This document shows, one piece after another, positions 2,857 through 57,032 of a stretch of 64,000 nt of DNA. A program made the translations under genes and the position numbers. Numbering within the stretch: the stretch's first letter is position 1; the number at the start of each line of letters is the position of its first letter. Origin of the DNA: Deltaproteobacteria bacterium (GTDB lineage: Bacteria > UBA10199 > GCA-002796325 > JACPFF01); NCBI GenBank assembly GCA_016210045.1, contig JACQUX010000019.1, forward strand, positions 4,102 through 68,101, written 5' to 3'. The notes below the pieces were generated by a model. It made no database searches, was not told where the DNA came from, and saw only the letters and a program-made list of their open reading frames with translations.

Positions 2857-3168
2857 TCACGATTTCCCCTTCCGCTCTCGCGGGCGCAGCCGGATGCGGG
2901 CTTCGATTTCGAGTTCGTGGTCGCGGAATAAATTCTTGGCCAGTTGCACGACATCGACACTCTGAAAGGCGCGCTGGATCTCGTGACGGATCAGTTTGAG
3001 GATCTCGTGTTTTCGTTTGTCGACTTGCGCCAGCACAAACGCGGTGGCGTCGCGTGGCAGGCTCAGCTCCTGGATCGCCTTGCGGACCCCTTCTTCAGTC
3101 ATCCAGAGCGCGCCGACACCCATGCGGATCAGCTTACTGAGTCGACCAGGGGCATCGCGCTCGCTCAT
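2857..3168 (-). CDS. Hypothetical small helical protein (phasin-like?)
   Basis: 103-aa ORF; 4-nt overlap (ATGA-type) with the downstream SRPBCC gene suggests an operon; no confident family. Confidence 0.4.
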   Translation of the reverse strand: MSERDAPGRLSKLIRMGVGALWMTEEGVRKAIQELSLPRDATAFVLAQVDKRKHEILKLIRHEIQRAFQSVDVVQLAKNLFRDHELEIEARIRLRPRERKGKS

Positions 3169-3626
3169 TGGCGTCCCTTTGTTTTGCGCGGGCGGCCGGT
3201 TTTCACTTTCGCCTCCGCGCGCGCTTTAAAGGCCGCGAGCGTCGCGGGGAGATTCCCTTCGACCAGGGCGTTTGTGACCATTTTCGGCACCAGCATCCCG
3301 AGTCCGATATCGACCGTGTACGTCGCTTCCGTGCCACCGTTGGCGGTCTTCAATGCCCAGCTGCCATCGTTACTGCGCATGAATTGGCCTTGGACCAAAT
3401 GCCAGCGCACGCCCTGCGGCGGTGCGAGTTGCATCCGCAACGTGTAGTGGATCGTGGTCATCAGTTGGAGGCGAAACTCCACGTCTTGGCAATCGCCGTC
3501 GGTCCGCACCACACGTGCCGACGTGACATCGCTTAAGAATTCCGGATAGGCGGCGAAATCCGTAATGACCGCAAATACCCGCTCGATTGGGGCATTAATC
3601 AGTATCGTCCGTGTCACACTCGCCAT
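3165..3626 (-). CDS. SRPBCC (START/Bet v1-like, polyketide cyclase/dehydrase-type) ligand-binding protein
   Basis: About 150 aa from MASVTRTILINAPIERVFAVITDFAAYPEF..., which is the characteristic N-terminus of cyclase/dehydrase/CoxG-type SRPBCC proteins. The ORF-track start at 3689 is probably an extension. Confidence 0.65.
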   Translation of the reverse strand: MASVTRTILINAPIERVFAVITDFAAYPEFLSDVTSARVVRTDGDCQDVEFRLQLMTTIHYTLRMQLAPPQGVRWHLVQGQFMRSNDGSWALKTANGGTEATYTVDIGLGMLVPKMVTNALVEGNLPATLAAFKARAEAKVKTGRPRKTKGRQ

Positions 3627-3628
3627 AG

Positions 3629-3751
3629 GGGGCCTCGCATAATACCCCATCTGCGTCGTTGCCCGACAAGCCGCGATCCTCACGTACAACCGAGTACGCT
3701 CCGGTCGCGGCTTGCCGGGCGCCTCGCATCTGGGGCATTCTTCAAGGCCCC
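3629..3751. repeat. Complex hairpin repeat element, copy 1 (family shared with 57033-57150)
   Basis: Conserved 5' block CCCATCTGCGTCGTTG, a 16-bp stem (GCCCGACAAGCCGCG/CGCGGCTTGCCGGGC) enclosing a conserved 30-nt loop ATCCTCACGTACAACCGAGTACGCTCCGGT, and outer GGGGGCC/GGCCCCC arms. Confidence 0.7.
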
Positions 3752-3761
3752 CGACAGATAG

Positions 3762-4733
3762 TTACGTATTCGGAATGCGACTCTTATGATGGCATTCGAT
3801 ATACCGGACCGTCCCGGTCTTGCCGCGCATCACGACGGAGTTCGTTTCATAGCGGATGCCGCCTAAGAACCGCACGCCTTTCAAGAAGTCGCCGTCCGTG
3901 ACGCCGGTCATCGAGAACACGACCGGGCCGCGCGCCAAGTCCTGCAGCGTATAGACACGGTTCAAATCCGTGATGCCCATTTTTTTGGCCCGCGCCCGTT
4001 CGTCGTCGTTGCGGAAGATGAGTCGGCCTTGAATGTCGCCGCCCATACACATCAGCGCAGCGGCCGCCAACACCCCTTCCGGCGCCCCACCGATCCCCAT
4101 CAGCAAGTCGACGCCGCGCGACGGACGACAGGTCGCGATTGCGCCGGAGACATCGCCGTCCGGGATCAGCTTGATCCGCGCTCCGGAGCGACGCACTTCC
4201 ATGATCAGGTCTTCGTGGCGCGGGCGATCGAGAATGACCACGGTCAAATCTTCGACGCCGCACCGCTTCGCCTTCGCGATCCGCTTCAAATTTTCCGTCG
4301 GCGTCGCTTCCAAATTGATCAGGCCTTTTCCGGCCGGCCCGACGGCGATCTTGTCCATATAGACATCCGGCGCATTGAGGAATCCGCCGCGTTCCGTGGC
4401 TGCAATGACGGCGCTCGCGTTGTTGCCGCCGCGCGCGGTGATCGACGTGCCTTCCAGGGGATCGAGTGCAATGTCCAACTCCGGACCCTTGCCGGTGCCG
4501 ACTTCCTCGCCGATGTACAACATCGGGGCCTCGTCGCGTTCCCCTTCACCGATCACGATACGTCCGCGGATCTCGAGCATATTGAGTCGGTCGCGCATCG
4601 CATTCACGGCGACTTGGTCGGCCTCGCGTTCGTTGCCGCGGCCCATCAAGCGTGCGGCCGCGATCGCGGCGGCCTCGGTGACTCGTACCAATTCTAACGC
4701 CAAGTTGCGGTCGGTGAGTGTGGTCGTGTCCAT
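3762..4733 (-). CDS. glpX: Fructose-1,6-bisphosphatase class II (GlpX)
   Basis: Strong similarity along the length to GlpX (LALELVRVTEAAA..., PMLYIGEEVG, LNAPDVYMDK, IPDGDV). Start taken at the MDTTTL internal Met. Confidence 0.9.
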   Translation of the reverse strand: MDTTTLTDRNLALELVRVTEAAAIAAARLMGRGNEREADQVAVNAMRDRLNMLEIRGRIVIGEGERDEAPMLYIGEEVGTGKGPELDIALDPLEGTSITARGGNNASAVIAATERGGFLNAPDVYMDKIAVGPAGKGLINLEATPTENLKRIAKAKRCGVEDLTVVILDRPRHEDLIMEVRRSGARIKLIPDGDVSGAIATCRPSRGVDLLMGIGGAPEGVLAAAALMCMGGDIQGRLIFRNDDERARAKKMGITDLNRVYTLQDLARGPVVFSMTGVTDGDFLKGVRFLGGIRYETNSVVMRGKTGTVRYIECHHKSRIPNT

Positions 4734-4780
4734 AAAACGCTCCTTCAGTTTGCGTAAGCAGTGCCGCAGCAAGTGCATGC

Positions 4781-5677
4781 TCACTCCTCACGCGTTTTCG
4801 CTCGGATCCACTGGGATTCCGCCATATAGGAACTGCGCACAAAAGGGCCGGAGAAGACGTGCCGAAACCCGAGCGCTGCACCGAATTGTTGATACTGCGC
4901 GAATTGCGCGGGTGGGACAAATTCTGCGACCGGGTAGTGCTGTGCCGTCGGCTGGAGATATTGGCCGATCGTGACGACGTCGCAACCGACGTCGCGCAAA
5001 TCGCGCAGCGCCTGTTCCATCTCGGTCGGCGATTCGCCCAGCCCGACCATCAGGCCGGATTTCGTCATGGTCTGCGGGAACAAGGTCTTGAAATGTTGCA
5101 ACACGGCCAGCGAGCGATCGTAGCGGGCCTTGCTGCGAATCTGTGGCGTTAAGCGCCGCACGGTTTCCAGGTTGTGATTAAAGATGTCGGGTGCGGCGAC
5201 ACCGACGATTTGCAGGCAATCCGTGCGGTCGTGAAAATCGGGCACTAACACTTCGATCGTCGTAGATGGCGTGGCGGCACGAATGGCGTGGATCGTCGCG
5301 GCGAAATGGGCGGCGCCCTCATCCGGGAGATCGTCGCGCGCGACCGACGTGACGACCACGTGATGCAGCCCCATGGCGGCGACTTGTTCCGCGACGTGGC
5401 GCGGTTCATCCGGATCCAACGGCGCGCCGCGCCCATGTTGCACGGCGCAGAAGCGACACGCGCGAGTACAGACCTCGCCGCAGATCATGAACGTGGCCGT
5501 GCCGCGCGAAAAGCATTCGCCGATATTGGGACAGCGCGCCTCTTCACAGACGGTCGTCAAGCGTCGTGCCCGCAAATGGCTCTTCAACGCGTGGATGGCC
5601 TGGTAATCCCCCGCCGATTTTTTCAACCACGGCGGAAGGCGGCCGATCCGGCCTTGTGGGGCGTTAGGCTGCGTCAC
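4781..5677 (-). CDS. lipA: Lipoyl synthase
   Basis: CEEARCPNIGECF and radical-SAM motif CGEVCTRACRFC; PPWLKK N-terminal motif. The start is ambiguous (GTG at 5677 or ATG at 5776); the 438-aa ORF-track extension is non-coding. Confidence 0.85.
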   Translation of the reverse strand: MTQPNAPQGRIGRLPPWLKKSAGDYQAIHALKSHLRARRLTTVCEEARCPNIGECFSRGTATFMICGEVCTRACRFCAVQHGRGAPLDPDEPRHVAEQVAAMGLHHVVVTSVARDDLPDEGAAHFAATIHAIRAATPSTTIEVLVPDFHDRTDCLQIVGVAAPDIFNHNLETVRRLTPQIRSKARYDRSLAVLQHFKTLFPQTMTKSGLMVGLGESPTEMEQALRDLRDVGCDVVTIGQYLQPTAQHYPVAEFVPPAQFAQYQQFGAALGFRHVFSGPFVRSSYMAESQWIRAKTREE

Positions 5678-55705: not shown

Positions 55706-57013
55706 TTACCCTCTCCGCCCTCGGAAGCGCGTGGCGCCGCCCTTTTGGCCCAACACGCCTTCGTAATGATGCGACAAGAGATGGGCTTCCATCTGGGAGA
55801 CCGTGTCCATTGCGACACCGACCATGATCAACAACGATGTGCCACCGAAGGTAAAGGCGATGCCCGGTGGGACTTTCATCCAGGTAGTGAGGATTTGAGG
55901 CAACAAACACACTAGCGTAATGTAAAGCGCCCCGCCGACGGTGATCCGGCTCAAGATGCGATCGAGATAATCGGAAGTCGCCTTGCCGGGACGGATCCCC
56001 GGGATATAGCCGCCATGTTTTTGGATATTTTCCGCGACATCCACCGGATTGAAGGCCACGGCGGTGTAGAAAAAGGTGAAGAAGACGATCATGACGGCGT
56101 ATAGGCTGTGGTGAATCCAGCCGGCGTTTAGCTGTTGTGCCAACTCCTGCATCCAACCGCCGCCGGCGAACTGGGCAATCGTGGACGGAAATAAAATCAG
56201 CGACTGGGCGAAGATCGGCGGAATCACGCCGGCCATGTTGATCTTCAACGGCAAGTGCGACTCTTGCCCCCCGTACAACTTCCGCCCGACGACACGTTTG
56301 GCATATTGGACCGGAATGCGGCGAAAGCTCCGCTCGAAATAGACGATGGCACCGATGATCGCGAAGATCAGCCCGAGCAACAGAATAAAACCGAGCAGCT
56401 CGCCGTACTGACCACGCTCCGCCCACGCCGCGCGGAAACTGGCCGGAACCCGCGCGACAATTCCGGCAAAGATGATCATCGAGATGCCGTTCCCAATGCC
56501 ACGCTCCGTAATTTGTTCCCCGAGCCACATCAAGAATGCCGTGCCGGTGGCCAATGTCAGCATGCTGAGCAGATAGAATCCGAGACCGCCGACGCCGGGC
56601 AGCAACACGCCTTGTTGCGCGAGTCCATAACTGATGCCGAACCCTTGGACCATACTGAGTACGAGCGTCCCGTAGCGCGTGTATTGCGTAATCTTACGGT
56701 GACCCGCTTCTCCCTCTTTTTTCAGTTGCTCGATGGCCGGGACGGCGATCGTCAACAGTTGGAGGATGATCGACGCGCTGATGTAGGGCATGATCCCGAG
56801 CGCAAAGACGGAAAAGTTTTCGAGGGCGCCGCCGGAGAAGAGGTTAAAAATGTCAAAGACCGTGCCCTGCTTCAGGATGTTTTCCAACGCCTTGGTATCG
56901 ACGCCGGGCGCGGGGACATACACGCCGAGGCGGTAGATCCCCAGCATCAGGAGCGTAAAAACTACCCGATTGCGCAACTCGGGAATTTTCGCGATGTTCC
57001 CAACGACCGCCAC
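55706..57013 (-). CDS. secY: Preprotein translocase subunit SecY
   Basis: 435 aa, 10 TM, canonical. Confidence 0.95.
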   Translation of the reverse strand: MAVVGNIAKIPELRNRVVFTLLMLGIYRLGVYVPAPGVDTKALENILKQGTVFDIFNLFSGGALENFSVFALGIMPYISASIILQLLTIAVPAIEQLKKEGEAGHRKITQYTRYGTLVLSMVQGFGISYGLAQQGVLLPGVGGLGFYLLSMLTLATGTAFLMWLGEQITERGIGNGISMIIFAGIVARVPASFRAAWAERGQYGELLGFILLLGLIFAIIGAIVYFERSFRRIPVQYAKRVVGRKLYGGQESHLPLKINMAGVIPPIFAQSLILFPSTIAQFAGGGWMQELAQQLNAGWIHHSLYAVMIVFFTFFYTAVAFNPVDVAENIQKHGGYIPGIRPGKATSDYLDRILSRITVGGALYITLVCLLPQILTTWMKVPPGIAFTFGGTSLLIMVGVAMDTVSQMEAHLLSHHYEGVLGQKGGATRFRGRRG

Positions 57014-57032
57014 CCTGCCCCCTTGGCGGGTT

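Follow-up and report, generated by a model that had tools for sequence, protein, structure and literature searches.

What is the structured repeat that occupies two intergenic spacers in a stretch of DNA from a Deltaproteobacteria bacterium (NCBI GenBank assembly GCA_016210045.1, contig JACQUX010000019.1, positions 4,102 to 68,101 of the forward strand)? An earlier note, made from the letters of this 64,000-nucleotide (nt) stretch (the whole of which is called the window below), had reported that positions 3629-3751 and 57033-57150 share a 16-nt block and a nearly identical 30-nt loop, enclosed by stems of about 15 base pairs (bp) that differ in sequence yet pair, and had proposed a selected structure belonging to a repeat family. 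This proposal is supported by the occurrence of the same hairpin in many phyla, by covariation of its helices, by a relative that scores as the small RNA sX9 and by presence/absence polymorphism between related genomes. We favour the explanation, with confidence that we place at about even, that the two copies represent a pan-bacterial family of non-autonomous, insertion-type mobile hairpin elements of ~120-150 nt whose structure is constrained on one strand.

Two copies of one hairpin

As the earlier note had it, each copy occupies a spacer in a minus-strand operon. Copy 1 is between glpX and an SRPBCC gene, and copy 2 between rplO and secY. The 16-nt block CCCATCTGCGTCGTTG has exactly two occurrences, at 3646-3661 and 57044-57059. 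The shared loop proved to be a 29/30-nt tip of the form ATCCTCACGTAC-A(A/T)C(C)GA-GTACGCTCCGGT, reading ATCCTCACGTACAACCGAGTACGCTCCGGT in copy 1 (3676-3705) and ATCCTCACGTACATCGAGTACGCTCCGGT in copy 2 (57075-57103), and the loop pattern had no matches in shuffled sequence (0). Both tips carry the form TCCTCACGTAC-N5/6-GTACGCTCCGG. The flanks of the two copies are unrelated. Their inner stems are also unrelated in sequence yet are paired in each copy, and the single A.C mismatch that each stem shows on the plus strand reads as a G.U pair on the minus strand. The earlier description missed the outer stem; the element is ~125-147 nt long and has this third stem as well.

The covariance model used below, R1, was made from a MAFFT alignment of 41 diverse members, both window copies included, by way of an RNAalifold consensus. 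The parts of the two hairpins are as follows.

3628-3752, minus strand: copy 1 hairpin from outer stem to outer stem, ~125 nt (fold and covariance model R1)
3627-3761, minus strand: copy 1 inserted segment, the entire 135-nt glpX/SRPBCC spacer (filled/empty-site alignment)
3677-3704, minus strand: copy 1 invariant tip module, minus strand CCGGAGCGUAC-UCGGUU-GUACGUGAGGA
3646-3661, minus strand: copy 1 conserved junction block, plus strand CCCATCTGCGTCGTTG, minus strand CAACGACGCAGAUGGG
3662-3676, minus strand: copy 1 variable inner stem, arm one, paired with 3705-3719
3705-3719, minus strand: copy 1 variable inner stem, arm two, paired with 3662-3676
3628-3637, minus strand: copy 1 outer-stem 3' arm of the mRNA strand (CGAGGCCCCC), read from the sequence
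57026-57151, minus strand: copy 2 hairpin in the rplO-secY spacer (covariance model R1 and fold)
57076-57102, minus strand: copy 2 invariant tip module, minus strand CCGGAGCGUAC-UCGAU-GUACGUGAGGA
57044-57059, minus strand: copy 2 conserved junction block, plus strand CCCATCTGCGTCGTTG

In copy 1, the tip is made up of a 6-bp apical stem, a variable loop, a GGA/GA internal loop and a CC/GG helix. The junction block pairs with 3720-3735 (minus strand CCCCAGAUGCGAGGCG), a GA/GA tandem mismatch included, and the outer stem joins 3628-3637 to 3743-3752 through 10 bp. The outer stem of copy 2 is a perfect helix of 18 bp (57026-57043 with 57134-57151). Both hairpins fold better on the minus strand, with -96.8 kcal/mol and z -10.3 for copy 1 (plus strand -77.1 and -7.5) and -87.4 kcal/mol and z -10.9 for copy 2 (plus strand -67.8 and -8.2). 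Because both copies are located within minus-strand operons, the better-folding strand is the transcribed one in each.

When R1 was run on the window it matched only these two copies, at 88.5 bits (E 2.5e-22) and 74.3 bits, respectively. The matches ran the full length of the model (1-115 of 115), that of copy 1 covering 3633-3748, and the next best match reached 11.5 bits (E 0.69). Since both copies are in the seed alignment of R1 these scores are partly circular; the exact core matches are independent of the model.

A family that spans many phyla

A search for the conserved loop, which the earlier note had named as a check, was made with the tip pattern TCCTCACGTAC-N2-7-GTACGCTCCGG on metagenomes and on species-representative genomes. 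It found at least 120 metagenome loci (soil, sediment, groundwater and gut) and at least 120 loci among the species-representative genomes, so that at least 240 loci carry the same tip. The scan places the family in at least nine phyla, namely Bacillota, Pseudomonadota, Bacteroidota, Planctomycetota, Nitrospirota, Chlorobiota, Myxococcota, Binatota and Thermodesulfobacteriota. Among the genome matches listed are Bacillus, Sporosarcina, Cytobacillus, Eubacteriales, many Enterobacterales, Burkholderiaceae, Xanthomonadales-like gammaproteobacteria, Myxococcales, Syntrophus, Nitrospirota, Scalindua, Bacteroidales, Cardinium, Chlorobiaceae and Binatia. The element is also present in 25 stretches of viral contigs and in 138 of 72,556 plasmid records, mostly from very large plasmids. 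The idea of a segmental duplication confined to this genome, with only two copies and similarity running into the flanks, is refuted by these numbers and by the unrelated flanks.

At all scanned loci the arms around the tip differ in sequence yet pair, and many loci share the junction motifs in the order ..CCAGAUGCAAGGCG-stem-core-stem-CAACGCNGCAGAUGG.. on the better-folding strand. As defined by R1, a member has the core CCGGAGCGUAC-N4-7-GUACGUGAGGA at the tip of a four-helix hairpin, with the junction motifs CAAGGCG and CAACGCNGC, and both window copies have all of these features. Extra copies cluster within the same loci and form head-to-tail arrays in three of them.

L200 (uncultured alphaproteobacterium), 1075-1427 and 2628-2746: three head-to-tail units of ~117 nt
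L012: head-to-tail array, two copies ~196 nt apart
L209, 1103-1349: head-to-tail array

Selection on the fold of one strand

The covariance-model search likewise extended what had been seen in the two copies, as R1 found 112 copies in 100 genome loci and the stems co-vary beyond controls. Of the 24 pairs in the RNAalifold consensus, 14 have compensatory changes; one of these pairs, for example, is GC in 27 sequences, UA in 7 and AU in 7, and is broken in none. In the alignment of the copies found by R1, 92.6% of the cells at paired positions do pair. The figure falls to 68.5% after column shuffling and to 20-36% if the partners are shifted by 1-3 columns. Double changes occur at 21 of the 24 pairs, and the covariation score is 0.44 versus 0.10. 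The alignment behind these three results is fitted to R1. A less biased view of the tip is provided by 11 second copies that lack the exact core, and here too the apical stem co-varies, with GUAC/GUAC changing to GUGC/GCAC or to GUGUAU/AUACAC. In these core-diverged copies the CC/GG helix flips to GG/CC and a G.U pair becomes A-U, and the purine internal loop (5'-G-N-A opposite 5'-G-A) is kept.

The two strands of the element are not equivalent. The reverse-complement strand (CCGGAG...GAGGA) is the more stable one in 161 of 216 instances, with a mean gain of 6.5 kcal/mol, and its variable helices contain 80 G.U pairs versus 39 A.C. The GA/GA tandem mismatches occur on this strand only. Because the mismatches, the stability bias and the G.U excess are all one-sided, the constraint is on the fold and on one strand. 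Selection acts on the fold of that strand, and the four helices need only to pair. The purine internal loop and the 6-bp apical stem with its G.U are nearly invariant across phyla, while the loop of the tip varies in length (4-7 nt). The fold asymmetry is independent of gene direction.

Insertion at the two window loci

The genes on either side of the two copies were assigned by Pfam as follows.

3762-4784, minus strand: glpX (class II fructose-1,6-bisphosphatase), the cistron upstream of copy 1 (PF03320, E 7e-141)
3165-3626, minus strand: SRPBCC / polyketide_cyc2 gene, the cistron downstream of copy 1 (PF10604 and PF03364)
57179-57634, minus strand: rplO (ribosomal protein L15), upstream of copy 2 (PF00828)
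55706-57013, minus strand: secY, downstream of copy 2 (PF00344)

The lipA-glpX-SRPBCC gene order is shared by a relative with a 96% identical GlpX, in which the junction reads TAA-CC-ATG in place of the 135-nt spacer of the window. The spacers at this locus in L262, L263 and L264 measure 2, 24 and 3 nt, respectively, the two genomes beyond the 96% relative being more distant. Because the close relative has a 2-nt junction in the same gene order, copy 1 is a recent insertion, and it was inserted as a complete hairpin, outer stem included. CTAT is found at both of its junctions; for this to count as a target duplication, the ancestral spacer would have to have been CT and not CC.

At the locus of copy 2, R1 had no match in eight relatives (SecY 67-79% identical), whose rplO-secY spacers are 0-102 nt long, and the element is present in a same-species contig (L252). 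The relatives available are too divergent for the boundaries of this insertion to be defined. The insertions are lineage-specific at both window loci. The element enters very short intergenic junctions as a full hairpin unit and is then carried inside the operon. Presence/absence polymorphism between close relatives was found at copy 1, at copy 2 and at the glnA-glnL locus of Escherichia coli.

The GAGG in the outer-stem 3' arm of copy 1 is positioned 7-8 nt before the downstream AUG (3624-3626) and is the putative ribosome-binding site of the downstream gene. The AAGGGGG ribosome-binding site of secY begins 2 nt past the hairpin of copy 2.

The E. coli copies and the RSA repeat

The element is carried by all 5426 of the 5426 complete E. 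coli genomes searched with a 136-nt query, with a median of 5 copies and a maximum of 8, and it is found at six places in K-12-derived strains. One of the metagenome loci is itself E. coli, as CsrC and Spot 42 are on the same contig, and has the element between glnA and glnL.

Six E. coli contexts (RefSeq annotation): glnA-glnL; pheM attenuator-pheS; ucpA-cysP; qseE-qseG; hemE-nfi; ycbX/rlmKL

The core CCGGAGCGTAC-N4-5-GTACGTGAGGA is exact in 6/6 of these contexts, and the remainder is ~85% identical with a variable tip loop. The transcript has the better-folding strand at glnA-glnL and pheM-pheS, and the opposite orientation relative to transcription at ucpA-cysP, qseE-qseG and hemE-nfi. The glnA-glnL copy is present in 993 of the 5426 genomes as a clean difference of 145-147 nt from O157:H7, with the insertion point directly after a small hairpin and no clear duplication. 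The region of the GlnZ small RNA, as compared between L121 (1501-1741) and L251 (1840-2125), exists in three allelic states: a short form (O157:H7), a form containing REP sequence (K-12) and a form with the hairpin element between the glnA stop codon and the GlnZ seed (the 993 genomes). In those 993 genomes the element would belong to the glnA 3' untranslated region and the GlnZ precursor. A further observation concerns the rplT-pheS spacer, where a copy is located both in E. coli (L245, 1501-1626) and in a distant bacterium (L084, ~1330-1450; PheS 56% and L20 65% identical to E. coli). The orientations of the two copies are opposite, and this suggests that sites of this kind have been entered more than once.

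These E. coli sequences might already have a name. The RSA repeat is described as 150/151 bp long with six copies in K-12 (PMC5172473, Table 1), and it is also named BEE95, one of the 'dispersed enterobacterial intergenic elements', in the reference list of PMC3751351. Judged by their copy number and length, the E. coli copies may be RSA/BEE95 repeats, the comparison being one of 145-147 nt and six places in K-12-derived strains with 150/151 bp and six copies rather than of consensus sequences. No RSA feature is present in the E. coli RefSeq annotation examined. The E. coli copies and the window copies share just the core and the junction motifs, as the inner part of the E. coli type is a conserved GCGC..GAGCAC internal loop versus a fully paired stem in the window copies. 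In addition, RSA is described as enterobacterial, whereas the present family spans many phyla. There are unannotated copies even in heavily studied E. coli operons, including the pheST leader, glnALG, hemE-nfi, qseEGF and cysP.

Relation to sX9

A scan of Rfam was another of the checks named earlier, and its outcome was divided. At the gathering threshold there was no match in the window, neither window copy reached the sX9 gathering score, and copy 1 at E values up to 10 returned only mir-431 noise and no sX9. A relative from a Xanthomonas-like locus (L009), which has the same tip and hairpin as the present family, scored 47.5 bits as sX9 (RF02228; gathering score 44). The copies from E. coli, Yersinia, Photorhabdus and Bacillus matched no Rfam family. 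A weak likeness to the ylbH leader was confined to L009 (26.6 versus 50 bits) and was not reproduced by the Bacillus copy, so this identity was set aside.

With its 76 nt the sX9 model represents the 3' half of the element: it begins within the tip, follows one arm downwards and has the TCCTCACGTAC orientation, which is opposite relative to transcription. That the model starts inside the tip suggests that sX9 might be a processing product. sX9 was detected as a 75-nt RNA in Xanthomonas (PMC3300014), and a Xanthomonas member was scored non-disruptable by transposon sequencing (Tn-seq; bioRxiv 10.1101/2023.08.03.551896). sX9 is also listed among the 20 most frequently annotated bacterial small RNAs (PMC9029176), as expected if the model catches a widespread core. 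Apart from sX9 the family is largely absent from Rfam and is therefore unannotated in most genomes. The window copies are Rfam-invisible members of a known, barely characterised kind (sX9 and probably RSA).

Genomic context

All-against-all clustering of 3417 open reading frames (ORFs) from 240 loci revealed no recurrent neighbouring protein family or transposase; the clusters are generic (ABC-ATPase, sensor-kinase and PpdK) and have no consistent placement. The centre of the core is ~40-77 nt past the stop codon of the adjacent gene, and thus the hairpin starts directly after the gene. No overall orientation bias was seen in 165 instances, as judged by crude ORF-based calls. Copies that follow tRNA genes in L043, L083 and L090 have the opposite orientation relative to transcription. 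The gene rnpB is flanked by the element on both sides in L101 (2816-3445) and has it just downstream in L191 (3301-3409), and these copies have the TCCTCACGTAC orientation relative to rnpB.

A fixed arrangement was found in Bacillaceae, where eight copies lie in ribosomal RNA (rRNA) operons, seven just upstream of 23S and one upstream of 16S. The better-folding strand is in the pre-rRNA for 8/8. The core centre is 50-55 nt before mature 23S in the seven copies and 46-55 nt before 23S or 16S overall, and the element of L171 ends 7 nt before mature 23S.

L171, 3189-3302: Bacillaceae rRNA-operon copy
L178, 1873-1985: Bacillaceae rRNA-operon copy
L193, 7367-7479: Bacillaceae rRNA-operon copy
L184, 30-142: Bacillaceae rRNA-operon copy
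L145, 98-210: Bacillaceae rRNA-operon copy
L124, 5340-5454: Bacillaceae rRNA-operon copy, upstream of 16S

These copies sit inside the expected pre-rRNA processing stalk. In Bacillus halodurans, the element is found at the ends of rrn operons B, D, F and G, where it is the 5' exon of the group IIC intron B.h.I1, as read from a primer sequence (PMC1702495). This primer was the sole match when the literature was searched by sequence strings.

Mobile element or universal RNA?

If the family consists of mobile hairpins, as we favour at even confidence, the invariant tip might be the handle for a partner that copies, moves or keeps the element. Both window copies would be transcribed in the better-folding orientation and would form rods of about -90 kcal/mol between cistrons. 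Since it took the place of a 2-nt junction between stop and start codon, copy 1 probably breaks the translational coupling of glpX and the SRPBCC gene, and its outer stem would bury the GAGG that is the putative new ribosome-binding site of the SRPBCC gene. By analogy with REP elements, which act in this way, each copy could block exonucleases or offer a site to RNases specific for double strands. Altered downstream initiation and RNase protection or cleavage would then be expected.

Several observations weigh against mobility as the explanation. No transposase, no terminal inverted repeat signature and no reproducible target-site duplication were found; the possible CTAT/TAT repeat at copy 1 requires a certain ancestral base to be assumed, and none is seen at the junction in E. 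coli. Compensatory-looking change in a DNA palindrome can come from arm-templated correction without selection, and the gene-orientation calls on metagenome contigs are crude. Thousands of E. coli genomes have their copies at fixed loci, and mobility is therefore rare in this species. Several Bacillaceae genera share a fixed site ~7 nt upstream of 23S in one orientation only, which looks domesticated rather than selfish. Finally, the 22-nt core is identical in Bacillus, E. coli and Bacteroidales, which would be hard to maintain for a co-evolving transposase and points to a universal partner.

The last of these points leads to the main rival explanation, which we regard as possible but clearly the less probable of the two. 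Under this proposal the element is a host-functional structured RNA whose GA-type loop and apical stem bind a universally conserved RNA-binding protein or ribonucleoprotein, perhaps in processing, stability, rRNA maturation or translation, and its dispersal is secondary. Such a function would fit the invariance of the core across at least nine phyla while all helices co-vary, the restriction of the GA/GA purine mismatches to the better-folding strand, and the presence of that strand in the pre-rRNA for all eight Bacillaceae rRNA-operon copies and in the transcripts at both window copies and at E. coli glnA-glnL and pheM-pheS. It would also fit the rarity of the element on plasmids and viral contigs, and the Xanthomonas member that is a detected 75-nt RNA (PMC3300014) and is non-disruptable by Tn-seq (bioRxiv 10.1101/2023.08.03.551896). 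Against it stand the opposite orientation of three E. coli copies, of the copies beside rnpB and tRNA genes and of sX9, together with the 165 instances without orientation bias. There is no conserved gene association, and the absence of the element from close relatives at both window loci means that it is dispensable there.

A narrower form of this proposal, which we consider unlikely, is that the tip is a pan-bacterial RNA ligand of a universal machine, such as a ribosome-, RNA-polymerase- or RNase-associated factor. If true, the family would be an unrecognised class of functional RNA module and not junk repeats. A 22-nt core preserved across phyla amid freely co-varying helices is the usual signature of universal RNAs, and yet this element is gained and lost like mobile DNA. 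Identifying the partner of the tip would bring to light either a mechanism of mobility or a universal interaction of RNA with protein, new in either case. The family would also link three things that had been annotated apart from each other or left unannotated, namely the RSA repeat known since the 1990s, sX9 of Xanthomonas, and the Bacillaceae rRNA-operon hairpin with its group IIC intron 5' exon.

It is rather improbable that the structure operates at the DNA level, as an extruded hairpin or cruciform bound or cut by an HUH/Y1 transposase (as in REP-RAYT and IS200/IS605 systems), a topoisomerase or a recombinase, with the RNA fold as a by-product. This would account for the occurrence of the element in either orientation relative to genes, for a strand asymmetry that is intrinsic and independent of gene direction (as in attC or IS608 ends, which have one active strand), and for insertion without clear target duplication, as for IS200/IS605-type elements. 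The variable loop of 4-7 nt suits a hairpin and not a duplex operator, and the group IIC intron B.h.I1 lies downstream of the element at four B. halodurans rrn operon ends (PMC1702495). On the other hand, no Y1/RAYT or other transposase recurs near the 240 loci. REP-RAYT pairs differ between species, and the identity of the core across phyla is unlike them. Conserved tandem G.A motifs, such as those found here, typify RNA and not DNA hairpins. Moreover, the pheM-pheS and ucpA-cysP copies of K-12 face opposite ways in what is probably the same replichore.

Less probable still is that the copies regulate their neighbours individually, as separate small-RNA genes or as intrinsic terminators or attenuators. 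The score of L009 above the sX9 gathering threshold and the location of elements directly after stop codons, with the core ~40-77 nt downstream, are compatible with this idea. In contrast, no promoter or terminator was found on the mRNA strand at either window copy: copy 1 has no intrinsic terminator with a U-tract on the transcribed strand, and the lone terminator match near copy 2 is on the plus strand (57014-57030) and within chance expectation. The window copies match no Rfam family, copy 1 not even at E values up to 10, and sX9 corresponds to the 3' half only, with its start inside the tip. As for chance similarity or a simple segmental duplication in this genome, the presence of only two copies in the window is outweighed by unrelated flanks, hundreds of homologues in other phyla and the absence of matches in shuffled sequence, such that we consider this explanation to be negligible.

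Comparison with known systems

In behaviour the element resembles REP/BIME sequences, which are intergenic, transcribed imperfect palindromes directly after stop codons inside operons. They too are multi-copy, occur in clusters or arrays and in either orientation, show presence/absence polymorphism and have likely effects on mRNA decay and coupling. However, REPs are 20-40 nt long, number hundreds of copies, have a GTAG/CTAC head and are species-specific, whereas the present element is 120-150 nt long and low-copy in E. coli, with four nested helices, a cross-phylum core and no RAYT nearby. An identity with REP/BIME therefore fails, given a hairpin of 125 nt with four helices, 2 copies in 64 kb and 5-8 per E. 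coli genome.

Hairpins of the miniature inverted-repeat transposable element (MITE) type, such as ERIC/IRU, Correia/NEMIS, RUP and bcr1, resemble the element as non-coding insertions of ~100-150 nt that form long, transcribed hairpins and are strain-polymorphic. In those families the terminal inverted repeats are defined, insertion duplicates a TA or another target, and the host range is narrow. By contrast, the outer stems of the present element differ between copies, no duplication is reproducible and the family is pan-bacterial. It is thus not a classic MITE, as it shows the polymorphism of one without target-site duplications or family-wide terminal inverted repeats. The subterminal hairpins of IS200/IS605 elements and of their miniature forms (PATEs) are similar in hairpin recognition, strand asymmetry and insertion without target duplication, but the present element has no TnpA/TnpB association and no conserved tetranucleotide at the two junctions available.

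Other identities were tried and rejected. Integron attC sites have the order 5'-RYYYAAC ... GTTRRRY-3', whereas the GTT../..AAC-like motifs here are in reverse order, and the context is one of housekeeping operons. A riboswitch or cis-regulatory leader is disfavoured by diverse neighbours, both orientations and the location of most copies downstream of genes, the Bacillaceae 23S site being the exception. An intrinsic terminator would require a U-tract hairpin on the transcribed strand, which neither copy has. A CsrA double-GGA site or Shine-Dalgarno decoy would leave the rest of the core unexplained; the element is abundant in Burkholderiaceae, and beta-proteobacteria are mostly not known to have CsrA. 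By-eye comparison showed a misfit of helix length with group II intron domain V and of bulge size with the K-turn.

When the halves of the tip are joined across the inner stem, they agree at 17/18 positions with E. coli 23S 2655-2671 (L244, 5114-5130), GTACGAGAGGACCGGAG. The sole difference falls at A2660, which we take to be the site of ricin depurination. Mimicry of the sarcin-ricin loop, or an antisense to it (GUACGNGAGGA+CCGGAG), was rejected as core-diverged copies keep the pairing and not the rRNA-like sequence. No rRNA similarity beyond 23S 2655-2671 was found, and the covariation in the diverged copies suggests that the likeness is a coincidence.

Other repeats in the window

Two further kinds of repeat were noticed. 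The spc operon, on the minus strand, has runs of a unit of ~8 nt in the S8-L6 (59109-59152) and S14-S8 (59552-59625) spacers. The unit is GUGCUUAA or AGUGCUUAAGUGC on the mRNA strand and CACTTAAG on the plus strand, with 8 copies reported, and such runs in two consecutive intercistronic spacers are unusual for ribosomal-protein operons. The stretches 28087-30644 and 33390-33958 hold long direct repeats with a spacing of ~1.09-1.15 kb, in blocks that are 86-94% identical, and four 65-nt units at 168-nt spacing. These repeats are probably part of a large repetitive protein-coding gene.

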